Assembly (NCBI GenBank): GCA_963807235.1
Contig: CAWEBF010000025.1
Coordinates: forward strand, 77,214-141,213
Length of the DNA: 64,000 bases
Reading direction: 5' to 3'
DNA from: an uncultured Acidobacteriota bacterium
GTDB taxonomy: Bacteria; Acidobacteriota; Vicinamibacteria; Vicinamibacterales; UBA2999
Shown piece by piece: positions 11,426 to 63,712 of this stretch. The notes under the pieces were generated by a model. The model was not told the origin of the DNA. It saw only the letters and a program-made list of their open reading frames with translations, and did not search any database. Numbering within the stretch: the first letter of the stretch is position 1; every line of letters starts with the position of its first letter. A program made the translations under genes and the position numbers.

Positions 11426-11452
11426 AGGTACCCGAAGGATATAGTGGCCACG

Positions 11453-34087: not shown

Positions 34088-36522
34088 CTAGGTGTCGGCT
34101 CGCAAGGCGACGATGGGGTCCACGCGCGACGCACGACGGGCGGGAAGATACGTCGCCAGCAACGCTACCGCCGCCAGGGCGCCTGATACGGCCGCATATG
34201 TGACCGGATCCGTCGGACCGACCCCGAACAGGAACGCCGACATGACACGCGTGAGCCCGATTGCGACGCCGATGCCGAGAACGATGCCGGTGAACGTCAG
34301 GGAGAGTCCATGGCGGAGAAACATCTTCCGGACATCTCCAGTCTGTGCGCCGAGCGCCATCCGCACGCCAATCTCGCGCGTCCGCTGCGTGGCCGCGTAG
34401 GCGATCACGCCGTAGATGCCCACGACGCCGATGAGGAGCGCGACGCTCGCGGCAATGCCGAGCATCACCAGCGCGAACGATGTCTGCGCCATGGAACGCG
34501 CCTGAATCTCTTCAAGCGTCTGCACGTTGGCCAGCGGCAGGTTCCGATCGACCGACCAGACTGCCTGCTCGAGCTCGCGCAGAAAACCCGGTGCGCCGAC
34601 TCGCGTGGAGCGCACGGCGAACGCCATCGTGCGCCATCGATAGGTCTCATTCAGCATCGGCCAGTACACGATCGCCGTCGGTGGCCGGTGCAGCCCATCG
34701 TCGCGCTCGTCACCGACCACGCCCACGACCTCCCGCCACGGCGGCTGCAGGCTGGCACGCACACGCCTGCCAATCGCCTTCGAAGGATCTTGCCAATACT
34801 CCCTGGCGAGCGTTTCCGAAATGACGATGACCGGCCGTTGCTGGTGGATCTCGCTCCACGTGATGGAGCGCCCCGCGACCAGACGGTTGCCCATCGTCTC
34901 GAAATAGCCCGGCGCGAAACTCTTGAACCGCCGGAGCCGGCCCCTTTCGCCTTCCGGCACCGGTGCGCCTTCCCACTCGATCGAGTTGCCGTTGTCCTCG
35001 CCGTCCATCGTGATGGACGACGAGAGACCAACGGACCCGACGCCTGGGACTTGACTAGCCGTTCCGCGACGCGCTCGAAGACGCGCGCGGTCTCCTGTGG
35101 ATCGCTGATGAGACCTTCCGGTATCGCGAGGACGAACGTCTGGACCTCCTCCGGACGCGTGAACCCCGGGTCGACCTGTCGCATGGCAATGAACGTCCGA
35201 ATCATCAGCCCCGATGCGATCAGCAACGTCAGAGCCAATGCGACTTGTCCCACGACCAGCACATTGCGGGTGCGGTGCCGGCCAGGAGCGTCGCCCGCCG
35301 ACCGGCCTCCTTCCTTCAGCGCCGCCATACTCGGCGTCCCGAACCGCAGGACCGCAATCAGGCCGAACAGAACACCGCTGAGCAGGGAGACGGACACGGT
35401 GAACAGCAAGACTCTTCCGTCGATACCGATGTCGTCCACACGCGGCAGCTCCGCCGGGGCGATCCGTCGCAGCAGCCCGGTCGCGGCCTGGGCAAGCGCC
35501 ACGCCGACCGCACCGCCCGCGAGTGCCAGTACCACGCTCTCCGACAGCAGCGCGCGCGCGATGCGGCCACGGCTGGCCCCAAGCGCTCCACGCATGGCGA
35601 ACTCCTGCTGACGTCCCTCCGCGCGCACCAGGTAGAGGTTCGCCACGTTCCCACACGCGATGAGCAGCACGACTCCGACGGCGGCCAGGAGAATCCAGAG
35701 GATCTCCCCGACGTTGCCGATCACGTCGTCTGCCAGCGGGCGCACGTTCGGCTGTAGCTCGAGTCTCGCAAAGATCGGCGGGAGCAGTGAGATCAGGCGC
35801 GCCACGTCGGCGTTGGCCTGTGCCAGCGTGACGCCTGGCTTCAACCGCGCGAGCGCCTGAAACCCGAAGCTGATTCCGCGCGGCGCGTTTGCGTCCAGTG
35901 GCATCGGCAACACGACGTCGGGCCGGGTACTCAGGAACTTGAACGACGAGGGCAGCACTCCGATCACTTCGACCGGGGCACCATCGATCGCGAGGGACTG
36001 GCCGACGATTGATTCAGCACCACCGAACCGGCGCTGCCAATAGCCGTAGGTCAGCAGCACTCGCGACGGAGTGCCCGGCGTATCGTCTTCGGCACCGAAC
36101 GCCCGGCCGAGGACGGGCTGTACGCGCAGCAGGGGCAAGGTGGCAGCACTGACCAGCAGAGCCTGAACACGCTCCGGATTACCGCCTCCAGTGATGGAGA
36201 CCTCGGCGGAGTCCCAGACGCCGATCGCCTCGAAGGCTTTCTGGTTCTCGCGATACGTGAAATAGGTGGCGGGGCCATGATTGGTCCCCGCTCCGTGCGG
36301 CGCGTGTTGCCGCAGGCTGACCAGCCTCTCGGGTTCCTGGAAGGGCAGGGGTTTCAGCAACACGCCGTGCACCACGCTGAAAATCGCAGCGGTGGCGCCG
36401 ATGCCCAACGCCAGAGTCAGGACGGTCGCGGACGCAAAGGCCGGCTTCTTCCAGAACGTGCGCGTGGCATAGCGCAGGTCCTGCCAGAGATCGCCCAGAA
36501 GGTGTCCGGTTGGATCGCCCAT
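34088..36522 (-). CDS. ADOP-like duplicated MacB/FtsX permease, copy 3, one frameshift
   Basis: ATG 36522 lies inside ORF 34651..36672. It joins ORF 34088..35656 near 35040-35065 (…RVFERVAERL / VPGVGSVGLSSSITMDG…) and ends YLPARRASRVDPIVALRADT. Confidence 0.8.
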
Positions 36523-40675: not shown

Positions 40676-41626
40676 CTACCGGGGAGCAGGGCGCGTGATG
40701 TACCACTGATTGCCGAGCGCATCCTCGACAAACGCCATTCGATCGCCGGAGGGCTGATCCACGGGAGGCGAAAGTGCCTTGGCACCCGCGGCGAGCGCCT
40801 GCTCGTACACCGCATCCGGATCCGCGACATACAGACAGAAGGCGCCGGGCATCGGATCGGCGGTGCCAAGTTCAATGGCCGCGTCGCCGACACGCGCACG
40901 CGCGTACGGAATGACGCCTCCCGGCAGCTCGTGCACCACCTCTTCGGAGGCACCAAATGCCCGCACGAGAAAATCGATATACCCGCGCACGTCGCGCGAA
41001 TGCACGAACGGCGTCACAGTCCGCAATGCGTGTCCGAGGGACTCCGGGCCGAGCGGGCTTGCGATGAACCAGTGGTTGCCGTAGGCATCCTTGACGAAGC
41101 CGGAGCGCTCTCCATACGGACGATCCGCTGGTTCGCCAACCGACTCGGCGCCCGCCGCAATCGCCTTCGCATAGACAGCATCGACGTCATCCACGAACAC
41201 GTGGAACGCCATCGACCTGCCCGGCACGATTTCACCCGTCGTCCCTTCGCTGAGCATGAGCATGGAACTGCCGATGCGCAGTTCGCGATGCGTACCGTGT
41301 CGTCCGCCCTCGGTGACGCGCGTTTCCACGGCATCGAACACGCGAACGAGGAAGTCGGAAAGGCCTCGGTCCGCCACCCACACGTATGGCGTAACGGTCG
41401 TGAACCCTTCGCGAATGTTGGTGAGTTCAGCAGTGGGCATTGTCAGCCTTCTTTCCAGTTGCGCACGCAGGCGCGTCTTGAAGTTGGCGCTCGGGTAGTG
41501 CCGCAGGTCGGCGGCAATCCGCACGAGCGCCGCCAGTTCCGGATCCCGGAGCGCGGCGGTCGCGTCACCCCGAGCCACAACGGCGTCGATCGCGCCGTCC
41601 AGCCGATCGGAGAGCTCGTCAGCCAT
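40676..41626 (-). CDS. sigma-coupled protein: anti-sigma-like helical N-terminus plus two VOC/glyoxalase-fold domains
   Basis: ATG 41626 lies inside ORF 40676..41725 and overlaps the sigma-factor stop by 8 nt. N-terminus LDGAIDAVVARGDATAALRDPELAALVRIAADLRHYP. Two VOC-like halves end GFVKDAYGNHWFIASP and AFVEDALGNQWYITRP. No TM segment. Confidence 0.6.
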   Translation of the reverse strand: MADELSDRLDGAIDAVVARGDATAALRDPELAALVRIAADLRHYPSANFKTRLRAQLERRLTMPTAELTNIREGFTTVTPYVWVADRGLSDFLVRVFDAVETRVTEGGRHGTHRELRIGSSMLMLSEGTTGEIVPGRSMAFHVFVDDVDAVYAKAIAAGAESVGEPADRPYGERSGFVKDAYGNHWFIASPLGPESLGHALRTVTPFVHSRDVRGYIDFLVRAFGASEEVVHELPGGVIPYARARVGDAAIELGTADPMPGAFCLYVADPDAVYEQALAAGAKALSPPVDQPSGDRMAFVEDALGNQWYITRPAPR

Positions 41627-42146
41627 TGACGCCCATGCCTTTCCGGAGGTTCTCGAGCGCGCGGAGCTGGAGCTGCTTGACCGCACCCTCAGACCGATCG
41701 AGCGCCGCCGCGACGTCGCGGACACTCCTGTCTTCCACGAACCGCATCTCGATCACGCGGCGCTGCAGGTCAGGCAGACGATCGACAAGCTGAAACAGGC
41801 TGACCCGTCGTTGCAACTCCTCGTGCTCGCGCTCGTCGGGCAAATCGGGCGGCGGATCCTGCGCCTCGCGGCCCTGCCGGCGCCAATGGTTCGCCAGGGC
41901 GTTCGCCGCCATGCGGTACAGCCATGCTGTGAACGGCACGCCGCGCCATTCGAACCGGGGCAGGTTCGCCAGCGCCAGCTGGAACACCTCCGAAGTGATG
42001 TCTTCGGCAACGAAACGGCTGCCGGCGCGCCGGCTGACATAGGCGTAGACCCGGTCCACGTAGCGGTCGTACACCTCGACGAAACGGGCAGGATCCGCCT
42101 TTGCCGCCTCGATCAGCGCCCGTTCGTCCTCTGTGCTGGTTGCCAC
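41619..42146 (-). CDS. ECF-type RNA polymerase sigma factor
   Basis: ORF 41619..42146. Region 2 reads YDRYVDRVYAYVSRR...AEDITSEVFQLALANLPRF...FTAWLYRMAANALANHWRR. Region 4 reads LPDLQRRVIEMRFVEDRSVRDVAAAL. Confidence 0.9.
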   Translation of the reverse strand: MATSTEDERALIEAAKADPARFVEVYDRYVDRVYAYVSRRAGSRFVAEDITSEVFQLALANLPRFEWRGVPFTAWLYRMAANALANHWRRQGREAQDPPPDLPDEREHEELQRRVSLFQLVDRLPDLQRRVIEMRFVEDRSVRDVAAALDRSEGAVKQLQLRALENLRKGMGVNG

Positions 42147-42346
42147 GTTGTGTGTAGCGCGCCTCCGAACAGGCCGCCGATCACTGTAACGGGCCAGGCA
42201 GTCGAAAGGTTACGGGTGGTCGAGCTTGGTGAAGACGTCCAGGTCGCCGGGCGCAACAGTCACGACCATTCATAGTCGGTGCTAAAATCGCCCCTCAAAT
42301 CTCGGATTCCCGCGCCCCGTAATTGGGGGCCCGGCGTGGAGTAACC

Positions 42347-42755
42347 ATGAGCACTCGAACCGCGCGACAGGTCGTATTGTGTGGATGCCTGATGACCGGC
42401 ATCGTGATAGCCGGCGGGGGGCTGCAGGCCCATCATGCCGTGGCGGGCGTGTACGACCTGAATAAAGAGGTGGTCCTCGAGGGCCGGCTCAAGAAGTTGA
42501 ACTTTACGAATCCGCACGCGAGCATCGAGCTCACCGTCCCGAACAAGAACGGCACGTTCACGGAGTGGAAGCTGACCACCGCCTCCATCACGACGCTGAC
42601 CCGGGAGGGAATCAACAAGACCTCCATGAAGCCTGGCGAGATCCTCAAGGTGACGATCCTTCCGGCGAGGAACGGGAACCCGGCGGGATTCATCAGGAAT
42701 CTCCAGCTCGGCGACCGCGAGCATCAAGCTCTTCTTCGGCGACGAACGCGACTGA
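42347..42755 (+). CDS. small exported protein 'D' (mature N-terminus HH, NPH motif; DUF6152-like by recollection), one frameshift
   Basis: ATG 42347 lies inside ORF 42323..43018, with GGAG 6 nt upstream. Signal peptide …IAGGGLQA then HHAVAGVYDL…FTNPHASIEL. A 1-nt correction at about 42722 gives the tail IKLFFGDERD and TGA 42753-42755. Confidence 0.6.
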
Positions 42756-42777
42756 CCGAATACCCTGGGAGTTGGCC

Positions 42778-43820
42778 ATGGCTGATCGACGATCTCTCGC
42801 GACAGGTGTGCTCGCTCGTTCTTGTCGCGATGAGCCAGCGTGGCCGCCTGGGGGCCCAGGGCCCGCCAGCCCAGGGGCCGGGTGCCGGAGCACCGCAGGG
42901 CCCCGGCGCGCGGAGCGGCCGAGGGGCGAGGTGCCGGAGCGCCGCCGGGTCGAGGCGCAGGTGGCGGTCGTGGCGACGCGGGAGCCGTTTACGCCCGCAG
43001 CCGGAGCCAAGGACCTGAAATCGGTCCTCTTCAACTGGACGTGGCACATGGGGATGCTGCGGAGCGGGGATGAGTCCGAGCTCGATCAAGACGCTCGACT
43101 ACCACGCTGCGGGGGGCACGATCCAGGTGGACGGTCAGCCCTGCACGCTGACGAAGTATCGCGTCCAGGCCAACTACCAGGTCCCGGGTACCGGACGCAG
43201 ATCGAGTGCACGCGTCCCAACAAACAGAACTATTCGAACGTTGAAACGATGAGCGGCGAGTACGCCTGGGACGAAGACATTCCGGGCGCGGAACTCGTTC
43301 CCGGCAAGGGCAAGGCAACTCCGCGGCCCGCCGCGCTCGAGGAGCGGCTGATCCGTCTGTGGGCGAGCCCTCACGGTGCGCCCAAGGCCGCCATCGCCGG
43401 CGCGGCCGGCCTGCCGCCGTCCGAGTCCTTCGGCGCAGAACCCGGCCACACTGCTCGATCGCCAGGCAGCCGCCGGCGCGAAGGCGACGACGACGCTGTC
43501 GTGGCAGGGGGAAAAGGCCGTCGTCACATATCCGATCCCGGGAGTGCCTGGGGCGACTGCGACGGCCACGCTCGATGCCGGCTTCCTGCCGGAACGCGTC
43601 GTGGTGACGCACGGGACGAACAAGACGGAGTTCGTCTACGGCAAGTTCGCAGGACTGGAACAATCCCCTGTTCAAGATCGAGGCTCTGTACGCCGGCACC
43701 ATCGTCGAGCGTCGGAACGGCACAGTCGTTCGCGACTTGAAGGCGAAGGTAACCGAAATCGGCCAGGTGTACGTCGTCGTGCCGGTTCCGGACAGTGTGC
43801 AGAAGGCTGCTGGAAAGTGA
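42778..43820 (+). pseudogene. exported uncharacterised protein 'X', at least 4 frame changes
   Basis: ATG 42778 follows GGGAG. The conceptual protein is read across ORFs 42565..43740, 43070..43252, 43376..44194 and a third frame ending VYVVVPVPDSVQKAAGK-TGA (43818-43820). It is collinear with X' at 47790. Confidence 0.5.
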
Positions 43821-43828
43821 GGATTGCG

Positions 43829-44683
43829 ATGAAGGCGACCATGGTGGCGATCGTTCTCGGTCTCCTCGTGACGCCAGTGGCGGCGCAAGGGGCCGGCGCC
43901 AGCGCAGCAGAACGATCGCGCAAGCTCCGACGCCCAGGTTGGCCAGCGGAAAGCCTGACCTGTCAGGCTCCTGGCAGGGGGCCGGCGGCGGTCAGCAAGG
44001 TTCCGGCGGCGATATGTTCCGGCGGTGCACTCCGTTCCAGTCGAAGCAGTGCATGGAGTGGACCAATCAGAGCGAGGACTGGGTGTTCATGTCGGCAACC
44101 CGGCTCGATCAGCGTCAGCCGCTGTACAAGCCCGAGCACTGGGACAAGATCATCGAGCTCGACCAGTGGACGAACAAGTACGACCCGGTCATGACCTGCC
44201 TCCCGCTCGGAATTCCGCGGCAGGGACCGCCGGCGCGAATCTTCCACACCGAGAACGACATCACGATGATCTACAGGGGCGGCGTCGACGGCGCCGGCGG
44301 GTACGCGGAGTTCCGCATGATCCCGCTCGACGGCAAGCCCCACGATCCCCGGCGGGCGCTCCATGTACACGTACATGGGGTACACGGTCGGCCGCTGGGA
44401 AGGCGACACGCTCGTCCTCGACTCCATCGGGTTCTCCGACGAGACCTGGCTCGGGCGCGGCGGCTTCTTCCACTCCGACCAGATGCGGGTCGTGGAGAAA
44501 TTCACCAGGACCGGGAACCAGATGCTCTACGAAGTGACGGTCGAGGACCCGGTGGTGTTGGTCAAGCCATGGGTCATGCCTTCACGGACCCTGCGGCTCT
44601 CCAACGCCAATACGATCATCGCAGAGCGAGGAAGCTGCACGGACAGCGAGCTGGCAGAGGTCAGCTCCCAGATGCGGCACTAA
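43829..44683 (+). CDS. exported uncharacterised protein 'Y', two frame changes
   Basis: ATG 43829 follows GAGGA. Signal peptide MKATMVAIVLGLLVTPVAAQG. It continues in ORF 43795..44715 (LYKPEHWDKIIELDQWTNKYDPVMTCLPLGIPRQGPP) and ORF 44363..44683 (VGRWEGDTLVLDSIGFSDETW…). It is collinear with Y'. Confidence 0.55.
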
Positions 44684-44688
44684 ATTTC

Positions 44689-44718
44689 TTGACTCATGAC
44701 GAGCGGTGCACGTAGCCT
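44689..44718 (+). promoter_or_regulatory. sigma70-like promoter upstream of a PadR gene
   Basis: TTGACT (44689-44694), an 18-nt spacer, then TAGCCT (44713-44718). GAGG lies 5 nt before ATG 44742. Confidence 0.35.
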
Positions 44719-44741
44719 ATGTGTCGAAGGTTGAGGCATTG

Positions 44742-45083
44742 ATGGCGTCCGCCCGATTTCCCATCCCCCAAGGCACGCTCGACATGTTGATCCTGCAGGT
44801 GCTGTCGCTCGAGGCCGCGCATGGCTACGCCATCGCGCAGCGGGTGCAGCAGATCTCACGCGAAACGGTGCGCGTCAATCAGGGCTCCCTGTATCCGGCG
44901 CTGCACCGCCTCGAACAGAAGCGCTGGCTGAAAGCGGAGTGGCGCCAGTCGGAAACGGGCCGCGAGGCCAAGTTCTATGCGCTCACGCGCGCAGGTCACA
45001 AACAGCTGGCGCTCGAAAAGGCCAGTTGGGGCCGTTTGACGGTGGCCGTTCAGCTGATCTTCGACGAGGAGCCTAGGCCGTGA
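44742..45083 (+). CDS. PadR-family transcriptional regulator
   Basis: ATG 44742 lies inside ORF 44706..45083. Signature PQGTLDMLILQVLSLEAAHGYAIAQRV...GSLYPALHRLEQKRWL...REAKFYALT. Confidence 0.85.
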   Translation: MASARFPIPQGTLDMLILQVLSLEAAHGYAIAQRVQQISRETVRVNQGSLYPALHRLEQKRWLKAEWRQSETGREAKFYALTRAGHKQLALEKASWGRLTVAVQLIFDEEPRP

Positions 45084-47705
45084 GCAGTTTGCTGAATCTT
45101 TTCAGTTGGCGGCGCGACCGGCTGGAGCGCGACCTCGATCGCGAGTTGCGGTATCACGTGGACCGCCGCGTCGATGACCTGATCAGGGCCGGTCTGAGCG
45201 AGCCCGAGGCCCGAAGGCAGGCGAGCCTCGAGCTCGGCGGCGTCGCCCAGGTGCAGGAGGCCGTGCGGGACACGTGGATATGGCGATGGCTCGATGCGCT
45301 CGTGCGCGACGTGCGCTATGCGATGCGGAGCCTGACGAGGAGCTGGGGCTTCACGCTCGGCGCCGGCGCCGTGCTTGCCCTGTCCATCGGTGCGAATGTC
45401 GCCATTTTCTCAGTGGTCAATACGGTGTTGCTCCAGCCGCTCCCTTATCCCGCCGCCGAGCGCCTCGTCTCGGTCGAGACATTCTGGACCAACACCGGAC
45501 GTGCCAACCAGATGTGTCCGGCCCCGACTTTCTCGACTGGCAGGCGCGAAACGACGTATTCGAAAAGATGGCCGTCTAGTCGGTGAGACGACGAGGCCGC
45601 CATCGTCGGCGACCGCGCCATGTTTGCCAACGCAGCGTTCGTCTCGGCCGATTTCTTTGCGGTCTTCGGCCAGACCGCGTCTGCGGGACGGCTGCTGACG
45701 GAGCGGCGATATCCCGGCGGAGGCGCGATCCGGCGGTCGCCGTCGTGGCGTATCACTGGGCGGTGACACACTTCGGCAGCGATGAGGCCGCGATCGGGAA
45801 AAGGATCGCGGTCTATGGCAACGCGGTGGAGATCGTCGGAGTGGCGGCGCCGGGATTTCGTTATCCCGGCTCCACTGATATCTGGTACACCCTGGCCGCA
45901 CGGCCGACGAAGATCCACAAACCGCGCAACCACATCTACCAGGCGGTCGGGAAGCTCAAGCGGAGACGTGGACCTCACGCGTGCGCAGGCGCAGATGCGG
46001 ACCATTGGTGACGCGCTCGCACGGCAAAATCCCGAGAACCGTTTCAAGACCGTGACTGTGATACCGCTGCAGGACCGGCTGACCGGCAACGTCCAGGCGA
46101 CGTTATGGGTGCTCATGGGCGCCGTGGGCGTCGTCTGGCTCATTGGGTGCGCCAATATCGCGAACCTCCTGCTGGCGCGGGCCGCGGGCAGGACGCGCGA
46201 GATCGCGCTCCGCGCCGCGCTCGGCGCGGGCCGGGGCCGTGTCGTGCGTCAACTGTTGACCGAGAGTTGCGTGCTCGCGGGGGTGGCCGGGCTGGCAGGT
46301 CTCCTCCTTGCGTCGACGCTCATGCAGGCACTCGTCGCGTTCTCACCCGCCAACCTGCCTGGCATCGGCGAGGCGCGGATGGACATGACCGTCCTCCTGT
46401 TCGCGCTCGGGCTCTCGCTGGTGTCGACCCTGCTGTTCGGCCTCGTGCCGGCCCTTCATGCCGCGCGGCTCGACTTGTCGGGTGCGTTGAAGCAGGGCGG
46501 CTCGAAGGTGACGGAGCGAGGGCCGGCACACGGTTCCGCTCGGCGCTGGTCGTGGCCGAAGTCGCGTTGTCGGTCATTCTGCTTGCGGCCGCGGGTTTGC
46601 TGCTGCGATCGTTCCAAGCGCTCCAGCACGTCGACCTCGGGTTCACGACGGACCGTGTGCTCGTGGCTTAGACGGAGTACGCGGTCACGGACGATCGGCG
46701 GACTCGCGCCAGGAGCAGGGCCTATGCCGATGTGCTCGACCGGCTACGTGCCATGCCTGGGGTGAGGGCTGCGTCGGCCGTGGCCTACGTTGGGATGGGA
46801 CGAGAGCCAAGGTCACCTCGGGATTTTTACATTCAGGGCCGACCGGATGGACGACCGGGCGACCGGCCGCAAGCGGAGTTTCACGCGATCACGTCGGACT
46901 ACTTCAAGACGCTGGAGATTCCGCATCGTGCCGGTCGCGACTTCGACAGGACCGACACGCCGGAGCGGCCGCCTGTCGTCATCGTCAACGAGGCCCTGGC
47001 ACGCATGGCCTTTCCGGGGAGTCGCCGATTGGAAAGCGTGTTCGGACGGGGACGAGTCCGCTGGCGTCGTGGATGGAGATCGTCGGGGTTGTCGGCGACA
47101 CCCGATGGCAGGACCCGAGTCAACCCGCGCCGGCCGTGATCTACGCGGCATCGACGCAGGGCTTCGGCAACTCGCCGGCGATCCTGGCTCGGACCTCGGT
47201 GGACGAGCTATCGCTGGCCAGCACGCTTCGCACTCTCCTGCACGATGCGAATCCCACGATGCCAGTCAAGTTCGAGACCATGGACGAGTTGTTCGACTCC
47301 ACGCTGGCGTATCCCCGGTTTCGCACGCAGGTCATTGGGCTGTTTGCGGGCGTGGCGGCTCTTCTTGCTGCCGTGGGCATCTTCAGCGTGCTGGCGTATC
47401 TCGTCGGACAGCGAACACGGGAACTCGCGCTCCGACGGGCCCTTGGCGCCCGGGCCGCCGATGTCCTCGGCCTCGTCGTGGGTCAAGGACTGCGGTTGGT
47501 GGCGATCGGCCTTGTGCTTGGACTTGCCGGCGCGCTCGCCATGTCGCGGCTGCTGACGGGTCTGCTCTATGAGATCAGCCCGTGGGACGTCCGCGCCTAT
47601 CTGGGGACGATCGCCGTGCTCGGCGGCGCGGCGCTGCTCGCTACCCTCCTTCCCGCGATCAGAGCAGCCACGATCGCGCCCGTCATCGTGCTCCGGCAGG
47701 AGTAG
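45080..47705 (+). pseudogene. ADOP-like duplicated MacB/FtsX permease, copy 4, multiple frame changes and in-frame TAG codons
   Basis: GTG 45080 overlaps the PadR stop (GTGA). Homology is traceable through ORFs 45080..45586, 45274..45579, 45583..46011, 45782..46765, 46105..46671, 46732..47139 and 47073..47705. TAG 46669-46671 interrupts a continuous frame (DRVLVA*TEYAV). A second TAG is at 45577-45579. Confidence 0.8.
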
Positions 47706-47789
47706 CCGGGCATCACGGTCAAGACGGCCGTGGGCCTTGACCTCGTCCTTCGGGACCGGCATGCTCACCCCAGAAGACGGAGGACCACC

Positions 47790-48768
47790 ATGAAGTTTGG
47801 TCGAAGGAATCTGGACGACGGTCGCATTCGCCCTTGTCCTGGCGATCGGCGTGGCATCGACAGCCGGTGCGCAGCAGGCTCCGGCCGGCGCGCAAGGGCG
47901 GGGCGGTGGGCCAGCTCCGGCCGGCCCACAAGGTGGGGGTCGTGGCGGTGCACCCGTACACACCCGCAGCGGGTGCCAAGGACTTGAGAGCCGTGCTGTT
48001 CAACTGGATGTGGCACCAGGGCATGCTGAAGGGCGCCGACGAACGCGACATGGTCGCGATGCTCGAGTACCAGGCCAAGGGCGGCACGATTCAGGTAGAC
48101 GGCCAGCCGTGCACGCTGTCGAAGTTCCGTGAGAGCACGAACTTCCAGACCTTCAGCCAGCGTATCCAATACACGTGCACGCGTCCCAACAAACAGACGG
48201 TTTCGAACATCGAGGTGGTCAGCTGGCAGTACGCGTGGAACGAGGACACGCCTGGCGCGGAGATCGCTGGATACGAAGGGCAAGGTGGCTGCGATGCCCG
48301 CGGCAGTGCAGGAGCGGCTGATCCGCATCTGGGCAAGTCCGCAGGGCGCGGCCAAGTCTGCGCTGGCAGGGACCATGGACACATGGAGGCTGGGCGCCAA
48401 CCCGGGAACGGTGATCGCCGACGGCGTGATGAAGGCCGGCAACACGTCCCTTTCGTTTGATGCCGCCGGCAAGCCGGTCTTCACGTTCCCGATTCCCGGC
48501 GTTGCCGGGGCGACCGGCACGGCCACGCTCGATGCGAAATACATGACGGAGAAGGTCGTCGTCACCCACGGCGCGCGGACGACGACGCGAGTTCACGTAC
48601 AGCAACTATCAGGACTGGAACAACCCGCTGCACAAGATCGAGGTGTACTACGCCGGCCGGTTGACTGAGCGGAAGAACGGTGCGGTGGTCCGCGATCTGA
48701 CGACGAGCGAAACGGAGACCGGCAATGTGTACGTCGTGGTGCCGGTGCCGCCAACCGTGCAGAAGGCG
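47790..48768 (+). pseudogene. exported uncharacterised protein X' (paralogue of X), at least 4 frame changes; its frame runs on into Y'
   Basis: ATG 47790 follows GGAGG. Signal peptide …IWTTVAFALVLAIGVASTAGAQQ (ORF 47797..48132) and a Gly/Pro-rich linker. It then runs through ORFs 47834..48460, 48129..48668 and 48643..49593. Confidence 0.5.
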
Positions 48769-49593
48769 ATGAACGTCACCACGAAGGCACCGACCATCGT
48801 CTGGGCCAGGACGGAGCCGCCGACGAACACGACGGCACCCACACCGCGGATCGGCGGGCATCCTGACATGACGGGCAATTGGGCGGAATTCAACATCGGC
48901 TGGATTGGGAACTACGGCAGCCGGCGATGCGGTCCCACGCAGGTGGCTTGCATTCGGGAAACCAACCAGACCGAAGACTTCGCGCTCTACTCACCCTCGC
49001 GCTTCGGCATGCTGGGTCGTCCTCTCTACAAGCCGCAGTACTGGGACAAGGTCCAGCAGCTCGACATGTGGACGAACAAGGAAGATCCGGTGATGACGTG
49101 CCAGCCGCTGGGGCTTCCGCGTCAAGGCCCGCCGCGGCGCATCTTCCAGTCGGAGAACGACATCACCTTCCTCTTCGGGAATTTTCCCGATGCAGGTGGC
49201 GGATACCCGGAATTTCGTGTGGTCCCGACTGATGGTCGTCAGCATGGCCCAGACGCAAAATACGCGAACAAGTACTTCGGCGACACGGTGGGGCGCTGGG
49301 AGGGCGATACGCTCGTGCTGGACTCCATCGGGTTCGTCGACACGACATGGATCGGGCGGGGCGGATACTTCCACACCGATAAAATGCATATCGTGGAGAA
49401 GTACAGGCGAGAGGGCGATGCCATTTTCTACGACCTGACGCTCGAGGACCCGGAGGTGTTGGCAGAACCGCTGGTGTTCCCGACACGGATCCTTCGGCGC
49501 AGCACGAATGCGAACGCGGGTCTCATCGCGGAACGTGGCAACTGCGAGACGACCTTTGAGACCGAAGCGGCCGCTTCACAGATTCGGCATTAG
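48769..49593 (+). CDS. uncharacterised protein Y' (paralogue of Y), contiguous in frame with the end of X'
   Basis: This is part of ORF 48643..49593. Blocks LYKPQYWDKVQQLDMWTNKEDPVMTCQPLGLPRQGPP, GGYPEFRVVPTDGRQH and VGRWEGDTLVLDSIGFVDTTWIGRGGYFHTDKMHIVEKY. There is no stop and no signal peptide between the X' and Y' parts. Confidence 0.6.
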   Translation: MNVTTKAPTIVWARTEPPTNTTAPTPRIGGHPDMTGNWAEFNIGWIGNYGSRRCGPTQVACIRETNQTEDFALYSPSRFGMLGRPLYKPQYWDKVQQLDMWTNKEDPVMTCQPLGLPRQGPPRRIFQSENDITFLFGNFPDAGGGYPEFRVVPTDGRQHGPDAKYANKYFGDTVGRWEGDTLVLDSIGFVDTTWIGRGGYFHTDKMHIVEKYRREGDAIFYDLTLEDPEVLAEPLVFPTRILRRSTNANAGLIAERGNCETTFETEAAASQIRH

Positions 49594-49607
49594 GAGGTCT
49601 GACAGCC

Positions 49608-50006
49608 ATGACTAACTGGATTTCGCGAGTCGCCGTTCTGTGCGCGTTCCTGGCCGCGGGTGCGTCGGTGTACGCGCATCATTCGCTGGCTGGTGTGTAT
49701 GCACTGGGCAAAGAGGCAAAAGTCACGGGCGCGTTCAAAGCGTTCAGGCTCGTGAATCCCCACTCGACGATGAAAATCGACGTCAAGGGCCCGGACGGCA
49801 AGACGGTGGAGTGGACCTTCGTCGGCGGCAGCGTCCAGCAAATCGCGAGGCTCGGTCTCAAAGAGGGCCCGAATGCTCTCAATCTCGGGGATGAAATCAC
49901 CGTCACGATTGTGCCGGCCATAGACGGCAAGAGCCCTATCGGGCTGCTGTCAGCGATCACCTACAAGGACGGGCACACCGTCCGTTTCCGTTCGCCCGAT
50001 GAGTAA
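49608..50006 (+). CDS. small exported protein D' (mature N-terminus HH, NPH motif), intact
   Basis: ORF 49608..50006. Signal peptide …LAAGASVYA then HHSLAGVYALGKEAKVTGAFKAFRLVNPHSTMKIDV. AGGAGG overlaps the Y' stop. Confidence 0.7.
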   Translation: MTNWISRVAVLCAFLAAGASVYAHHSLAGVYALGKEAKVTGAFKAFRLVNPHSTMKIDVKGPDGKTVEWTFVGGSVQQIARLGLKEGPNALNLGDEITVTIVPAIDGKSPIGLLSAITYKDGHTVRFRSPDE

Positions 50007-50043
50007 GGCGAAGGGCTAAGACCGGCGCCCGTCCGCCCGGGGT

Positions 50044-50949
50044 TCATCGAACCTCCGAACCCTGTGTCCGCGACGCAGACTGCACGAGGATGACGGCCAC
50101 GAGAATCAGCGCGGTCGCTCCGCCCACCTGCGGCGTCAGGGCCTCGCCAGCGGCCAACCAGCCGAGGAAGACGGCCACGGCGGGATTGACGAAGGTGTGG
50201 GTCGCGACCAGCGTGGCCGAGTGGCGCTCGAGCAGCCACGTGTAGGCCGAGAACGCGACGATCGAGCCGAACACGATGAGATAGCCGAGGCCCAGGAGCG
50301 AGCGTGACGAGACCTCACGCAGCTCGAGGTCGCCAAGCTCTCCGCTGATCGCACTCGACGCGATCAGCAGCACGGCGCCGCTCAGCAGCGTGGTCGAGGC
50401 CCGGACGAACGCGTCCTGCGGCAGCGGGGCGGTCGCCGAATAGCGCACGCCGAGAGCCCACGACATCGCGCCGATCAGGATCGCGGTCGATCCCCAGAGC
50501 TGAGTGGACCCCGCGGACAACGTGTCGCGCGGTATCAGCAGCGCGACGCCGGCGAGCCCGGCGACGAGGCCGGCGATGGTCCGCCATCCGACGCGCTTGC
50601 GGTCGGATGGCATCAGCATGGCAATCCAGACTGGCTCGGTCGCCACCAGCAGCGCGGCGATGCCCGACGGGACCGTCTGTTCCGCCCAATGGAGCGTCCC
50701 GTGGCCGATGAGAAAGAACAGGACGGCCACCACGACGCTGGCCCGCCACTCCGTCGCGCTGACCCTGACCCGCCCGCCCATCCACGTGGACACGCCATAA
50801 AGGACCGCGCCGGCAACGAGGTGGCGCACGCCGGCCGTCAGGAGTGGCGGGATGGTCTCGACGGCGTACCGGATCGCGAGGTAGGTCGACCCCCAGATGA
50901 CGTAGATGGCGAAGAACGCGAGCCATTCGCGCGCGCTGAGCTGCCTCAT
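50044..50949 (-). CDS. EamA/DMT-family transporter
   Basis: ORF 50044..50949. Ten hydrophobic segments and an N-terminus FFAIYVIWGSTYLAIRY typical of EamA repeats. Confidence 0.85.
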   Translation of the reverse strand: MRQLSAREWLAFFAIYVIWGSTYLAIRYAVETIPPLLTAGVRHLVAGAVLYGVSTWMGGRVRVSATEWRASVVVAVLFFLIGHGTLHWAEQTVPSGIAALLVATEPVWIAMLMPSDRKRVGWRTIAGLVAGLAGVALLIPRDTLSAGSTQLWGSTAILIGAMSWALGVRYSATAPLPQDAFVRASTTLLSGAVLLIASSAISGELGDLELREVSSRSLLGLGYLIVFGSIVAFSAYTWLLERHSATLVATHTFVNPAVAVFLGWLAAGEALTPQVGGATALILVAVILVQSASRTQGSEVR

Positions 50950-50983
50950 GCGGCGCTCGACCGATCAGTGCGGCGGCGAGGTT

Positions 50984-51860
50984 CTATTTCGCCGTGCCGC
51001 GGAGATGCTGCTCGAACCACCGCACCATTTCGGGATTGGCACGTGTGAAATCGGCGTCCGTGAACGCGTGTTCGGCGCCTTCGATTCGGACGAACGACGC
51101 GGGCACGCCCGCTTTCGACAGCGCCGCGTACATCGTTTCGCCCTCGGCCATCGGGACGAGCGTGTCGGCGTCGCCGTGCACGATGAGCGATGGAGCTGCC
51201 GCCGGCGAGACGAAGCGAATGGGTGAGTACTGCGCCGCTTCGGCCTCCGTCAACGCAGTTGCCGGGAACGCCCGGCTGTTCGCCCATCGAGAGAGATCCG
51301 TGGGCGGAAAGTACGCCACGACCGCGGCGACGCGACTGGATTCCCTGAGCACGGCGTCGGAGGCCGACGGATCCCCGGAGTCGGCTGTCGTACCGAGCAG
51401 CAGCGCGAGCTGCCCGCCGGCGCTGCCGCCCAACACGCCAATGCGGTTGGGGTCGACGCCGTACTCGCCAGCGTGCTGACGGATGAAGCGGACCGACCGC
51501 CGCATGTCCGCCACGATCGCCGACATGGGATATTTCGGGCTGCTGCCGTGTCTCACCGCGAATACGGTAAACCCCTTCTCGGTCAACGGGGGATAGGTAC
51601 TGGGCCATATGACGGCCTAACTCCACGCTCGATTGCCACCCGGCGCTCACGATCGAGATGACGCCAGCGCCGTTGGAGTGTGCCGGACGGTAGACGTCGA
51701 AAGTCAGGGCGAGGCCATCCTTGTGCCCGTACACCACATCCGTGGTCACCGAGGGCTGGCGCGCCGGCTCGGGCGCAGCGGCAACCCCAGGCTCCGATGG
51801 TGCACACGCCCACGTGAGAAGAGCGGCAAGTACGACGAACGACCGCAAGCAACTGCTCAT
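50984..51860 (-). CDS. exported alpha/beta hydrolase (esterase/lipase type), one frameshift
   Basis: ORF 50946..51860 (signal peptide, …ISIVSAGWQSS) joins ORF 50984..51586 at a C5 run around 51587-51591. Nucleophile elbow GGSAGGQLA and the motif HGDADTLVP. Confidence 0.75.
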
Positions 51861-52467: not shown

Positions 52468-52603
52468 CGGTCGCGCTGGCATAGCATCGATCCCGCCCGA
52501 ACTGAACTGCAGGGCAGAACGCCTTGCGACCTCAGTCGGTCGAGTCGCACCGTCCGGCTGGAATCGCGGGCCCGGACGTGAGACAAATGTCCCGGTCGGT
52601 CCG

Positions 52604-53680
52604 ATGAGCACGCCCGCGAAGACTCGCCAACACATTCGCTACGTGACTGCGCCGGATGGAACACGGCTCGCGTGGGCAGAATCGGGCGCCGGTTCGGTCC
52701 TCGTGAAAGCGGCCAACTGGCTGACGCATCTCGAATACGAGTGGGAGAGTCCGGTCTGGCGCCACTGGCTGCAGTTCTTCTCTGCGCACTGCCGCTTCGT
52801 GCGCTACGACGAACGCGGCTGCGGCATGAGCGACTGGCAGGACGGCGTCCTGTCGCTCGAACAGTGGGCAGGCGATCTGGGATCGGTCGTCGAAGCGGCG
52901 CGACCCGACGCTCCGGTGACGCTGCTCGGCATCTCACAGGGCGCCGGCACGTGCATTCAGTACGCGCTGGGCCACCCGGAACGCGTCGGTCGAATGATTC
53001 TCTACGGAGGATATGCTCGGGGCTGGAGACGGCGCGGCACCGCGGAAAGCCAGGCGGTGTACAAAGCGGTGATCGACCTCATGCGCGTCGCGTGGGGCAA
53101 AGACAATCCGGCGTTCCGGCAAACGTTCACGTCGCGCTTCATTCCGGGCGGCAGCCACGAGCAGCTGCAGTGGTTCAACGATCTGTGTCTGAAGACGACG
53201 CCAGGCGACGTCGCGGCCAGGATCCAGGAAGCGCGCGGCGATTTGGACCTCACCGCGGACCTGGGCCGCGTGAAGACGCCGACGCTCGTTCTGCATGCGA
53301 GAGACGACCAGGTGATCCCGATCGCGGAAGGCCGGCGGCTCGCGAGCGGCATTCCGGGCGCCGAGTTTGTCGAGCTCGATTCGCGCAACCACATCCTGCT
53401 CGAGCACGAACCGGCGTGGCAACGGTTTCAGGACGCCGTACTCGCTTTCCTGCAGCCCGGCCAGTCCCGCGGCGATTCCGTGTTCGCGGCCTTGTCGGCG
53501 CGCGAACGTCAGGTACTCGCGCTCATGGCCGACGGCTTGAGCAACACTGACATCGCCGAGCGGCTGAGCATCAGGGAGAAGACCGTCCGCAATCACGCGT
53601 CGAACCTGTTCGACAAGCTCGGTGTATGGTCGCGCGCGCGGGCGATCGTGTTCGCGCGCGATCATGGTTTCAGCGGCTGA
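52604..53680 (+). CDS. alpha/beta-hydrolase domain fused to a LuxR-type HTH
   Basis: ORF 52604..53680. GxSxG elbow LLGISQGAG. The C-terminal LuxR HTH reads LSARERQVLALMADGLSNTDIAERLSIREKTVRNHASNLFDKLGV. Confidence 0.8.
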   Translation: MSTPAKTRQHIRYVTAPDGTRLAWAESGAGSVLVKAANWLTHLEYEWESPVWRHWLQFFSAHCRFVRYDERGCGMSDWQDGVLSLEQWAGDLGSVVEAARPDAPVTLLGISQGAGTCIQYALGHPERVGRMILYGGYARGWRRRGTAESQAVYKAVIDLMRVAWGKDNPAFRQTFTSRFIPGGSHEQLQWFNDLCLKTTPGDVAARIQEARGDLDLTADLGRVKTPTLVLHARDDQVIPIAEGRRLASGIPGAEFVELDSRNHILLEHEPAWQRFQDAVLAFLQPGQSRGDSVFAALSARERQVLALMADGLSNTDIAERLSIREKTVRNHASNLFDKLGVWSRARAIVFARDHGFSG

Positions 53681-53774
53681 CTAGTGGCGGGAGATTAGCG
53701 AATTCATTCAAATCTCAGGGTCCGCTCACGGTTCGCTGAGGACTTTCGGGCAGGGCCTCCGTCACAGTGAACAC

Positions 53775-54788
53775 ATGAAACCCGCTACCAGTCTCGTGAA
53801 CCCCGGGAAGGCATTCGCCTTTATCGCCTTCGCCCTCGTCATCGGGCCCTTGGGCATCTATGTCGCCGAAGCTGACGATGCACCTGGCGCCGCGGTCATC
53901 GGCCTGCTGCTGATGCTCGTCGCGGTCGTGCTCGGCGTGAAAGCCGCGCGGAACCGGCTGCCGGCCTGGGCCGCCCGCACTGCGCTGGCCGTCGGCGCCC
54001 TTATTGCGGCGTTCGCCGCATTTGTGACCCATGCGACGGTTGTGGCAGCGCCCCTCTTCGCGCAGCCGGAGGACGTGCCGTCGGTCGTTGGGGCAGCGCC
54101 CTCTCAGCAGTGGGCGGCGGGGGCCGACCGCGCGCGGCAGCTGGTACGCGCAGCGATCTCCGACCGAAACCTGCCTGGACTTTCGATCGCAGTCGGCGCC
54201 GGCGGCGGCATTGTCTGGGCCGAAGGGTTCGGCTGGAGGGACGTCGAAACGCGCGCGCCCGTCACCCCGAACACGCGATTCAACATCGGCACGGCGGCGT
54301 CCGTGGTCACTCCGGCCACCGTCGCTCAGCTCGGGCTGACCAACACCGGCGCTGACTCGGCAGCGGCGTGGAGCCCGGAACATATCGGCGAGCCGGAAGA
54401 AGACTTCCCGCTCTTCAGGCTCATCCGCGACGTCATCCTCAGGCCGATCGGTATCGGCCGCGCGCAGCCGCTGCCGGGCGAGCGCGCGACGTTCTTCGTC
54501 CCGAGATCTAATGACAATCCAGGGCGCGGCAGGCGCCTGATGTATATGCGCGACCTGGCGTGCTGCGCCGGCGCGATGTCGTTCTACTCCACGCCTTCCG
54601 ATCTCGTGCGCTTCGGCCTGGCCACGGGCGCCAGCGTCAACGGCGAGCTGGCGGGCGGGATGGTGATGTCGTTGATGACGAGGCGCGACAGCGGCGTCGT
54701 CGTCGTGGTGATGTCGAACATCGCGCATACGAACACGTCCGCGCTCGCGCAGAAAGTCGGGGACGCGTTCGCGGAACTGGCGCGATGA
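53775..54788 (+). CDS. membrane-anchored beta-lactamase-related protein with degenerate SxxK
   Basis: ORF 53775..54788. Three N-terminal TM segments, then the serine-hydrolase-like block NLPGLSIAVGAGGGIVWAEGFGWRDVETRAPVTPNTRFNIGTAASVVT. Confidence 0.55.
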   Translation: MKPATSLVNPGKAFAFIAFALVIGPLGIYVAEADDAPGAAVIGLLLMLVAVVLGVKAARNRLPAWAARTALAVGALIAAFAAFVTHATVVAAPLFAQPEDVPSVVGAAPSQQWAAGADRARQLVRAAISDRNLPGLSIAVGAGGGIVWAEGFGWRDVETRAPVTPNTRFNIGTAASVVTPATVAQLGLTNTGADSAAAWSPEHIGEPEEDFPLFRLIRDVILRPIGIGRAQPLPGERATFFVPRSNDNPGRGRRLMYMRDLACCAGAMSFYSTPSDLVRFGLATGASVNGELAGGMVMSLMTRRDSGVVVVVMSNIAHTNTSALAQKVGDAFAELAR

Positions 54789-54851
54789 GGCACCCAGCCG
54801 CCGAGTGGACCGATGGCAACGCAACCGCGGCGCGGGCAACCCCGCTTGGCC

Positions 54852-56046: not shown

Positions 56047-58508
56047 ATGAATACCGGCCTGGTCTCGTGGCTCGACTGGAAGCTGGGCGCGCGTATGCTG
56101 CTGAAGTATCCCGCGCTCACGATCATCGGCGGCCTTTCGCTGGCCGCGGCCATCGCGATTGGGGCGGTCGGCATCGAAGTCGCCGGCGAACTGCTGTACA
56201 AACGCCTGCCGTTCCCTGAAGGCGGTCGAATCGTGCGCCTGGAGACGCAGGACGCGGCGGCGTCACGCGTGGAGCCAAGGGTGCTCCACGATTTCGCGAT
56301 CTGGCGGCGATCTCTCAAGACGGTGGGGGAACTCGGTGCCGCGCGCGTGAGCGAGCGCAACGTGCTCACGGGCGAAGGCCGCGTCGAAGCCCTGCGGGTG
56401 GCGGAGATCACGGCGTCGGCGTTTCCGCTCACCCGCGTGCCGCCGCTGCTTGGCAGGCCGCTGCAGCCGACAGACGAAATGCCGGGGGCGGCGCCCGTCG
56501 TGGTCCTGGGTTACGACGTCTGGCAGAGACAGTTCCTGCACGACCCGGCGATCATCGGCCGCGTCGTGACGGTGGGTCGCACGGCTCGCACCGTGGTGGG
56601 CGTGATGCCGCCGCGCTTCGGCTTCCCGCACAATCAGCAGGTATGGGTGCCATTGCCGGTCCAGGACGCGCCGCCGCGCGAAGGGCCGGCCGTGCAGGTG
56701 TTCGGCCGCCTCGCCGACGGAGCGAGCTGGCAGGACCGCCGCGGCGGAGCTCGACGTCGTCTCGGCACGCTTGGCCGCCGACCAGCCGGCAACCCACGCG
56801 CACCTGCGGACGCGCGTTCGCGCATTCGCCGGGCGCACGCCTGGTGATCCGCTGCGGCTGGAAGATCTGGCGATCCACGCCATCGTCCTGCTGGTGCTGG
56901 GGGCGGTCTCGGCGAACGTCGCAACGCTGATCTTCGCGCGCACGGCGATGCGCGAATCGGAGATGGTCGTCCGTCACGCGCTGGGGGCGAGCCGTGGCCG
57001 CGTGATCGCGCAGATCGTCACCGAAGGGCTCGTGCTGGCCCTCGCCGCCGCCGTGCTCGGGCTCGTCGTGGCCCAGACGACAGTGCGCTATGCCTGGGCC
57101 CGGGCGAGTCAGCTCACGGGGGAGGACCTGCCGTTCTGGGTAGATCTCAGGCTCGAGCCTGTCACCGTTGCGTATGCGCTGCTTCTCGCGCTCGTCGCCG
57201 CGGCACTGATCGGCCTGCTGCCCGCACTGAAGGCCACAGGTGGGTCCGTCCTGCGGGGACTACAGGGGATCACGGGCACCGGCGGGACGATGAAGTTCGG
57301 CGGCATCTGGTCGTTCATCGTCGGCGCGCAGGTGGCGTGCACGCTGCTGTTCGTGCCGGCCGCGGTCGGAATCTACACCACCTCTGTTCAGAACCGGCCA
57401 CAGTGGACAGCGTTTCCGACGGAGCGTTACCTCACCTTCCACCTCAGGATGGACACCGAGGCGCTGACCGGCGAGCGCGGTGTGCTTGACGATGTGCAGA
57501 TCGGCGCCCGTCGCGCGCTGGCATACGAAGCATTCGCGAGCCAGTTGCGTGAGCAGCCTGGTGTGACGCACGTGGCGCACGGCGATCGCCTGCCGACGAT
57601 GTCCCCGGAGTGGGTGGCGGTGGAAATGGAGCAGGACGGTGCACCTCCGGCCCGCCTGCAGCGGCAATTTCGAGGGCGGATTCGCGATGGCGGCTGTCGG
57701 TGCGGGCTATCACGAGGCGTTCGGCGCCAGGATCGTAGCCGGTCGCGGCTTGCGTGCCGCCGACGCTGGGGCGCCGAACGGGCCCGTCGTGGTCAACCAG
57801 GCGTTCATGCGCGTGGTGGGCAGGAATCCCGTGGGCGCACGCGTCCGAACGCTCCAGGGGGGCAGCGAGCGCGAGCCGGGACCCTGGCACGAGATCGTCG
57901 GCGTGGTCACCGATCTGTGGACGGTCCCGGCCGATTGGGGTGGGGCGGCGTACGTCTATCGCGCGGCCTCGACGGCGGAGCTCGATCCTCTCGTGGTCGC
58001 GGTGCGCGTCGCGGGGGACGCAGCGCCGCTTGCGCCCCGCGTCGCCGCCCTTGCGCGGCAGGTCGATGCGGGGCTGCAGCTCCGGGACATCGCGACCCTC
58101 CAGGAGACCGTCGCACAGCAGCAGGCGGGGGGCATCGGCGGCGTCGTAATCGGCAGCATTCTGCTCGTGGCGGTGGTCTTCTCCGCTGCCGGTCTGTACG
58201 CCCTCATGGCCGTCGCCGTGGCGCGTCGCACCCGCGAGATTGGAATCCGTATCGCACTCGGTGCCAACCCCCGCCACGTGCTCCGTAGCGTTTTCGCTCG
58301 CGCCGGTCGTCAGCTCGGCGGCGGCATCATCGCCGGCAACAGCATCGTCCTGCTCCTCGCGTGGCGCGCCGACAGCCTGACCGTGGATCTCCTCGTCTCA
58401 TCGATGATCACGTCCGTCATCATGGCGGCCGTGGGCGTGCTCGCGTGCGCCGCACCGGCGAGCCGAGCGCTGCGTGTTCAACCGACCGAGGCGCTGCGGC
58501 AGGGTTGA
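56047..58508 (+). CDS. MacB/FtsX-type duplicated permease (ADOP-like), copy 5, two frame changes, no cytoplasmic prefix
   Basis: ORFs 56047..56847, 56771..58288 and 57639..58508 join near 56733 (…ADGASWQ / TAAAELDVVSARLAADQP…) and near 57655. It ends PASRALRVQPTEALRQG. Confidence 0.75.
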
Positions 58509-58605: not shown

Positions 58606-59040
58606 ATGAGGCAGGCACTGGTGACGCTGGCAGCGACTCTCTCTGTCGCACTCACATCGCCTCCTGCGCATGCGCATCACAGCCACTTCTACGATGAGTG
58701 CAAGATCATAACCATCGAGGGGCGTGTCGAAAGCGCGGCATTCAAGAACCCACACAACTTGATCGTTCTCAGACTCGATGATGGAACGGCCTATGCCGTC
58801 GATTGGGTCAATGTGACCTGGTTGACGAGGGCCAGCGTCATCAATGCCGCGAAAGGAGCGGTAGTACCTGGGGCGCGCCTCGAGGTGACGGGTTATCTCA
58901 TCAGGGATGCGGCTACGATCCCGAAATCGAAGGGCGTCGTGGACCCGAATACCGTCGAAGCTCGCTTGCTACGGCGCGTGGACGACAGTTTCAGCTGGGG
59001 GATGCCTCCGAGGTCAACCTCACCGAACTGCGACCGGTAG
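58606..59040 (+). CDS. small exported protein D'' (mature N-terminus HH, NPH motif), solo copy
   Basis: ATG 58606 lies inside ORF 58591..59040, with GGAGG 8 nt upstream. Signal peptide …LTSPPAHA then HHSHFYDECKIITIEGRVESAAFKNPHNLIVLRL. Confidence 0.6.
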   Translation: MRQALVTLAATLSVALTSPPAHAHHSHFYDECKIITIEGRVESAAFKNPHNLIVLRLDDGTAYAVDWVNVTWLTRASVINAAKGAVVPGARLEVTGYLIRDAATIPKSKGVVDPNTVEARLLRRVDDSFSWGMPPRSTSPNCDR

Positions 59041-63386: not shown

Positions 63387-63712
63387 GCGAGCTTCATCAC
63401 GCGGCCGATGGCGTTTGCCATGCGTTCCCATTCCCGCGCTTCGACCGCGAGTTGACGGCGGCCCGACGCGGTAAGGTGGTAATACTTGGCGCGGCGGCCC
63501 AGCTCCGAGACCTTCCAGTCGGCCTCGATCCAGCCCTGGTGCTCGAGACGATGGAGGGCCGGATACAGCGAGCCCTGATTGATCTGCAGGACGTCTTGGG
63601 AAATCTGCTGGACGCGCTCGGAGACGGCCCAGCCATGCAGGGCATCCTTCTGCAGCGTGCGCAGGATCAACAGATCGAGCGTGCCGGGCAGCAAATCGGG
63701 TGTTCTCGCCAT
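63383..63712 (-). CDS. PadR-family transcriptional regulator
   Basis: ATG 63712 lies inside ORF 63383..63883. Signature LPGTLDLLILRTLQKDALHGWAVSERV...GSLYPALHRLEHQGWI...RRAKYYHLT. Confidence 0.85.
   Translation of the reverse strand: MARTPDLLPGTLDLLILRTLQKDALHGWAVSERVQQISQDVLQINQGSLYPALHRLEHQGWIEADWKVSELGRRAKYYHLTASGRRQLAVEAREWERMANAIGRVMKLA

Follow-up and report, generated by a model that had tools for sequence, protein, structure and literature searches.

DUF6152 proteins paired with an unannotated Y domain in soil bacteria, and two diverged copies of the module in an uncultured Acidobacteriota bacterium

Small exported copper proteins with a histidine brace, among them CopC, YcnI/DUF1775 and the LPMOs, are cleaved so that an N-terminal histidine is exposed, which binds copper together with a further histidine (PMC10952591, PMC8424229). 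The DUF6152 family (Pfam PF19649), to which exported proteins of about 130-145 residues with a signal peptide are assigned here, has no described function. A 64,000-nucleotide stretch of DNA from an uncultured Acidobacteriota bacterium of the Vicinamibacterales lineage UBA2999 (GenBank assembly GCA_963807235.1, contig CAWEBF010000025.1, positions 77,214 to 141,213 of the forward strand; hereafter the window, whose numbering is used throughout unless another locus is named) carries three DUF6152 genes. A preliminary description had read two of them as parts of an exported three-gene cassette, present twice in permuted order on either side of a dead PadR-ADOP module and functionally tied to the orphan permeases. 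In what follows, D denotes the DUF6152 protein and X and Y its partner domains; the genes of copy A carry a subscript (D_A, X_A, Y_A) and those of copy B a prime. Comparison with related loci shows that the conserved unit is D together with a Y domain, an adjacency that holds whichever of the two genes is used to select loci and that is joined by gene fusions. The two copies in the window are ordinary members of this widespread module. The reading favoured for the region as a whole, held with somewhat less than even confidence, is that it contains two paralogues, separated long ago, of a widespread, uncharacterised and exported D plus Y-domain module, one split (copy A) and one fused (copy B), that its frameshifts are assembly errors, and that the PadR-ADOP pair is unrelated.

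The stitched 600-residue X'Y' sequence served as the query for homologues and matched more than 120 proteins of 585-627 residues at 77-90% identity and 91-100% coverage. In the genome collection, 398 stretches encode a relative, and the best 79 of these 398 loci were examined with hidden Markov models (HMMs) built from the loci, D and XY being counted as adjacent when they shared a strand and were no more than 600 bp apart. By this measure, D adjoins 59 of 95 XY genes, and X always stands directly upstream of Y in the best 79 loci, which bears out the co-localisation of the three components in other genomes. Seen from the other side, 68 of the 73 D genes in these XY-chosen loci adjoin a gene with a Y domain, 58 of them XY and 10 stand-alone Y-like. 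A check unbiased by Y was obtained by scanning metagenome contigs with a different D subfamily, giving 80 D-chosen loci, 68 of them assessable. A Y-like gene adjoins D in 59 of these 68, directly downstream in 54 and directly upstream in 5, and X is found in none of the 68. Furthermore, metagenome-assembled genomes (MAGs) of the Bryobacterales encode D-Y fusion open reading frames (ORFs), at 7785-9083 of locus L067 and 7796-9625 of locus L071, both on the reverse strand, with PF19649 at residues 16-99 followed by the Y-like part. The DUF6152 domain is N-terminal in these proteins, with His-His after the signal peptide, and the fusion protein scores 78.5 bits against PF19649. Such fusions, of the 'Rosetta-stone' type, support a functional link between D and Y.

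The module is found in Vicinamibacterales, Bryobacterales and soil Gammaproteobacteria, where tandem arrays are common, with two to three XY-D or D-XY units arranged head to tail (L018 1-5817, L002 9179-20820, L081 6649-14670). In an earlier count, in which D adjoined 61 of 97 XY genes, it lay downstream of 38 of these genes, upstream of 21 and on either side of 2. Given these numbers, the differences in the order of D and XY are ordinary variation between subfamilies; both D-XY and XY-D are conserved and frequently seen, and the permuted order of the two window copies is not a local rearrangement.

Within the window, both copies were recovered at the positions first proposed, by tblastn with the intact D, X and Y proteins of a sister contig as guides. 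This contig (ENA ERZ25039494, contig_84572, 120 kb; locus L001) was reached via P0165, an X' homologue with 98% identity. In copy A, all on the forward strand, D_A (42347-42755; PF19649, E 5.8e-24) has a signal peptide and a predicted mature N-terminus of His-His; it is followed by X_A (42778-43820), a separate X gene that encodes a signal peptide and a Gly/Pro/Ala/Gln-rich linker and ends in a stop codon of its own, and by Y_A (43829-44683), a separate Y gene with its own signal peptide (MKATMVAIVLGLLVTPVAAQ). Copy B, on the same strand, consists of X'Y' (47790-49593), a single fused gene of about 600 codons with no stop between X' and Y', and the intact D' (49608-50006; PF19649, E 9e-18). 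The X'Y' protein is laid out as a signal peptide, a low-complexity linker, the X domain, a linker and the Y domain. D' starts 14 nt past the XY stop codon, which is overlapped by a Shine-Dalgarno-like TAGGAGG, and the gaps between the module genes are short, as had been noted from the first. Signal-peptide-like N-termini can be read on D, X, Y and XY, in line with the exported character predicted for them, and a scan for promoters and terminators gave no more signals than chance.

The two copies are an old duplication, as had been proposed. X and X' share approximately 51-57% protein identity (tblastn, E 5e-79), Y and Y' 52% (E 2e-85) and D and D' 32% (E 2e-17), and at the DNA level the copies are just 68-70% identical over 863 and 484 nt. 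A common 23-mer occurs exactly twice in the window, at 43206 and 48175, where none would be expected, in agreement with the preliminary description; the G+C content of the window is about 66%. Distinct sets of orthologues are present in other genomes for the two copies, copy B-type XY at 77-90% identity and the split copy A-type D-X-Y in loci L001, L006, L036 and L078. Low DNA identity and separate orthologues together exclude an assembly duplicate, and both copy lineages existed before these Vicinamibacterales genomes diverged. A third, divergent DUF6152 gene, D3 (58606-59040, forward strand), was also confirmed by tblastn (30% protein identity to D, E 1.5e-8), and its orthologue in the sister contig carries PF19649; the HMM scan found no Y-like domain beside it.

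The picture of three genes per copy holds for one copy only. When the three forward frames of 42300-44720 and 47700-50010 are read, X' runs into Y' in a single frame with no stop (…VYVVVPVPPTVQKAMNVTTKAPTIVW…), and copy B therefore comprises two genes, XY and D', rather than three. This is the usual situation, as the X-Y junction is in frame without a stop in 86 of 96 cases. The split form, in which X ends in a stop codon and Y begins with its own methionine and signal peptide, occurs only in the four copy A orthologues named above, always in the order D-X-Y. Thus, XY is normally one gene; copy A, with its three ORFs D, X and Y, is the rarer split form, and copy B is the common form of fused XY followed by D'. 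Programmed frameshifting at the X-Y junction was considered and rejected, given that most junctions are in frame and that the breaks differ between assemblies. Truncation or loss of frame, frequently close to the X-Y linker, affects many public XY homologues (P0082, P0159, P0187, P0191, P0225).

In the same forward-frame reading, the sequence blocks of the preliminary description are visible, and frame switches recur in X, Y and X'. D_A, with 95% identity to the intact 135-residue D of the sister contig, has one frame-breaking indel near 42722; X_A is broken many times, and Y_A has two breaks, its tblastn matches falling in frames 2, 1 and 2. X'Y' has about three breaks, all in its X part, and its Y part is intact. 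The sister contig aligns with window positions 37896-60778 at 95.5-98% identity and carries intact D, X (344 aa), Y (282 aa), PadR (110 aa) and ADOP permease (875 aa) genes, and its copy B is broken in X' and D' at other sites than in the window. Between the two assemblies there are 99 indels, mostly single bases without homopolymer association and concentrated at 42-46 kb and 51-52 kb, and approximately 17 of them change the frame within X alone. The 'frame correction' that the first reading of the region required is traced to these many one-nucleotide indels.

True pseudogenisation of the cassette and the PadR-ADOP pair, leaving the decaying relic of a duplicated locus, would account for the many breaks in X, Y, the ADOP gene and X', and for the concentration of indels where the divergence between window and sister contig peaks. 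Nevertheless, the substitution pattern makes this very unlikely. The mismatches at first, second and third codon positions number 16, 10 and 51 in X, 19, 15 and 46 in Y, and 29, 22 and 54 in the ADOP gene; this third-position bias indicates that all three diverged under purifying selection. In X, approximately 17 indels stand against only 26 first- and second-position changes, far too many for neutral decay. In addition, the sister contig carries the same genes intact, its copy B is broken at different places, and frame breaks extend to other genes across the window, including four of its six ADOP genes. The description of the PadR-ADOP module as dead is therefore unsupported, as both of its genes are intact in the sister contig and the mismatches fall mainly at third positions.

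The origin of related assemblies points in the same direction. The ENA accession next to that of the sister contig, ERZ25039495, which is the source of locus L084, is a Microflora Danica (MFD) MAG assembly, with locus L050 coming from its chromosome OY969712.1 (MFD02416.bin.1.163), and many related loci are MFD MAGs. Such MAGs were assembled from Nanopore reads alone and polished once with Medaka (PMC12313526), and the window is inferred to derive from an assembly of this kind. Its frameshifts are most likely long-read indel errors rather than gene death. The truncated public homologues of XY probably reflect the same problem in other MAGs, with the consequence that protein databases hold many artefactual fragments of the XY family. 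Apparent pseudogene clusters in long-read MAGs should accordingly be checked against sister assemblies before gene death is inferred.

As for the proteins themselves, D alone falls into a named family. D_A and D' score 84.5 and 64.6 bits against PF19649, both above its curated gathering score of 27 bits. H1, H2, G18 and H29 do not vary across 20 diverse D sequences, H29 lying in an NPH motif, and in 94% of 81 sequences His-His directly follows a hydrophobic leader that mostly ends in 'AxA', the presumed cleavage site. This His-His...NPH motif and the near-obligate Y-like partner are, as far as could be found, undescribed for DUF6152. The predicted mature N-terminal His-His together with His29 recalls the histidine-brace proteins, although a PDB profile search detected no sequence relationship.

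Y belongs to a much larger group. A Y profile search of 1.84 billion representative proteins returned 8,908 clusters (counted at 50% identity) at E <= 1e-3 and 3,276 at E <= 1e-10. Y-like proteins are mostly stand-alone, with 270-320 residues, and the source-given names of the clusters are all 'hypothetical protein'. Ten diverse Y-like proteins gave no Pfam match and no meaningful NCBIfam match, the two that appeared being at chance level and well short of the curated cut-offs. Among members that are 29-51% identical, G36, D106, C111, P122, R150, G171, W194, E210 and D227 are invariant, and R118, H202, R214 and C259 are near-invariant. An AlphaFold2 (AF2) model of Y' is beta-rich in its C-terminal half, and the best Foldseek matches in the PDB for the Y' and full-length XY models are FABP/CRABP-type barrels (probability up to 1.0, template modelling score approximately 0.5 when normalised to the target). 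The C-terminal part of Y is therefore modelled as a weakly FABP-like (calycin) barrel, a likeness that is suggestive and not significant. FABPs hold the carboxylate of their ligand with buried arginines, and the counterparts in Y would be R118, R150 and R214. The likeness to calycins in general (FABP/CRABP, lipocalin, avidin, nitrobindin) lies in the antiparallel barrel predicted for the C-terminal ~125 residues of Y; in contrast to them, Y shows no sequence similarity, is about 280 residues long with a long conserved N-terminal part, and has a conserved cysteine pair (C111/C259), predicted export and a pairing with D. At the sequence level, the calycin relationship was not found, as Y, XY and the ten diverse Y-like proteins have no Pfam, NCBIfam or PDB profile match.

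X is equally isolated, with no Pfam match in six diverse members; Foldseek with the full-length XY model recovered only the Y barrel. The idea that the components are internal duplicates of one another was examined by hhalign, which found no relation between X, Y and D at the profile level, and nothing credible emerged when PDB sequences were searched with profiles of Y, XY, D and diverse Y-like proteins. The early failure to place X and Y in a named family is thus borne out across Pfam, NCBIfam, PHROGs and the PDB. In 91 of 120 full-length XY proteins, RR occurs within the first 15 residues (e.g., MKFGRRNRW…), followed by a low-complexity linker rich in Gly, Pro, Ala and Gln (e.g., window 47790-47880), and this leader could possibly be an export signal of the twin-arginine translocation (Tat) type.

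The best guess for the function is that the module is an exported metal-binding and ligand-binding pair. In this proposal, all components would be exported, and D would be cleaved after its AxA site to expose the invariant His-His N-terminus, which, with the NPH histidine, may form a metal site. Y would be a disulfide-stabilised protein whose C-terminal part may form a calycin/FABP-like barrel, with the invariant Arg, Glu and Asp on the barrel strands holding a small, probably anionic, ligand. The pair would then act outside the cytoplasm, with D donating metal to, or accepting it from, a ligand or site held by Y. X would be a lineage-specific accessory domain, and the tandem multi-copy arrays may reflect diversification for different substrates. 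The division of labour in this proposal, with D as an exported metal-binder by analogy with the histidine brace (N-terminal His-His plus H29), Y as an exported ligand barrel with buried charges, both working as a pair, and X as accessory, is put forward tentatively. A bolder form would make DUF6152 and the Y-like proteins a new and very widespread extracytoplasmic two-component metalloprotein system of soil bacteria, in which D, with a site resembling a histidine brace, exchanges a metal, such as copper, with a calycin-like partner holding a metallophore or an organic substrate, and XY is an elaborated branch; this is considered rather unlikely as it stands.

Several points weigh against the favoured reading. 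D is not obligatory for XY, as 36 of 95 XY genes have no adjacent D, and in Bryobacterales an alpha/beta hydrolase gene takes the place of D after XY. Metal binding by D is inferred from the three histidines only. The AF2 model of Y' is of moderate confidence (mean pLDDT 67.6, pTM 0.71), its Foldseek matches are weak (E 0.02-0.05, none at E <= 0.001), and the full-length XY model (pLDDT 51.5) is too poor for X to be interpreted. No characterised homologue or solved structure was found for D, X or Y in the PDB or the literature. Lastly, the artefactual nature of the frameshifts is strongly indicated rather than proven.

The neighbourhoods of XY raise another explanation, in which organic esters or aromatics of plant or soil origin are processed or bound by XY and Y-like proteins, as secreted enzymes or binding proteins, and D is an accessory for which metal handling is not the main role. 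Neighbours that would fit do recur, in a minority of loci: an alpha/beta hydrolase with a Tat signal directly follows XY in approximately 13 Bryobacterales loci, carboxylesterase B is present in about nine loci and TonB-dependent receptors in 15 of 79, the window itself encodes a BD-FAE-type hydrolase (50946-51860, reverse strand), and the gammaproteobacterial locus L084 holds genes for tannase, COesterase, a TonB-dependent receptor, Trp-halogenase and 2-oxoglutarate (2OG)-Fe(II) oxygenase. The invariant charged residues of Y would suit such a role as well. However, no neighbouring family appears in more than approximately 20% of the loci, no catalytic motif or fold match for enzyme activity was found, and the strict pairing with D and its three invariant histidines would be left unexplained, making this explanation improbable. 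Beyond this question, the Bryobacterales hydrolase is a protein of 284 residues with a twin-arginine-type leader (MGSTRRTLLAAGAAAAATTAVARAFAQ), encoded at 10859-11713 of locus L057 and at the equivalent position in the other loci of that group of about 13. In L084 (gammaproteobacterial chromosome OY969712), positions 1-21362 hold three DUF6152 and three XY genes interleaved with genes for two tannase-family proteins, a carboxylesterase, a Trp-halogenase, two 2OG-Fe(II) oxygenases and a TonB-dependent receptor, and this region resembles a substrate-utilisation island.

Between the two copies of the window lie genes that belong to the neighbourhood and not to the module: a PadR-family regulator (44742-45083, forward strand), 98% identical to the PadR protein of the sister contig, which carries PF03551, and an ADOP-type (acidobacterial duplicated orphan permease) duplicated MacB_PCD/FtsX permease (45080-47705, forward strand), which is frame-broken in the window. 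PadR-ADOP pairs resemble partners of the module in being physically adjacent to both copies and D3. Indeed, PadR-ADOP follows copy A, copy B follows the ADOP gene, D3 has a frame-broken ADOP gene on one side and a PadR gene on the other, and locus L013 has the order XY-D-PadR-ADOP, all of which would suit a periplasmic accessory module of orphan, MacB-like ADOP permeases under PadR control. This arrangement is not conserved elsewhere. ADOP genes occur in 10 and PadR genes in 4 of the 79 XY-chosen loci, with direct adjacency only in L001 and L013, and in the 80 D-chosen loci the counts are zero and one. ADOP genes are also very abundant locally, with at least six in the 64-kb window (8068-10470, 30946-33605 on the reverse strand, 34094-36498 on the reverse strand, 45080-47705, 56047-58508 and 60714-63431 on the reverse strand), along with at least five PadR genes, so that adjacency is expected by chance. 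The adjacency is thus coincidental and the PadR-ADOP pair an unrelated, very abundant neighbour; the functional tie to ADOP permeases suggested in the preliminary description is not borne out, and the accessory-module explanation is very improbable.

Two further features of the region can be recorded. A gene for a sigma-70 factor of the extracytoplasmic function (ECF) type (41619-42146, reverse strand) lies divergently upstream of D_A, with Sigma70_r2/r4 in its orthologue in the sister contig, and an ECF sigma gene is also found near the XY-D array of L081 (15670-16131). A 2.3-kb segment at 52539-54848 is absent from the otherwise collinear sister contig, representing a strain-level insertion or deletion. 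It contains two intact ORFs, one of 358 residues (52604-53680) that is apparently an alpha/beta hydrolase with a C-terminal LuxR-type helix-turn-helix, and one of 337 residues (53775-54788) with a membrane-anchor-like N-terminus.

Literature searches on DUF6152, PF19649 and Vicinamibacterales gene clusters found no description of the module and no paper that mentions the family. The pairing of DUF6152 with Y-like proteins, and the X and Y families themselves, are not described in the libraries and literature searched. In soil bacteria, secreted proteins that are conserved but hypothetical are frequent. If the pairing is a real functional unit, it would define a large and now unannotated family of approximately 8,900 clusters, without coverage in Pfam, NCBIfam or the PDB, and the invariant three-histidine motif would give DUF6152 a role open to testing. 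The host groups, Vicinamibacterales, Bryobacterales and soil Gammaproteobacteria, are poorly represented in culture despite their dominance, and the frequent tandem arrays of the module point to an important extracytoplasmic function in these bacteria, which may be, for example, the scavenging of metals or nutrients.

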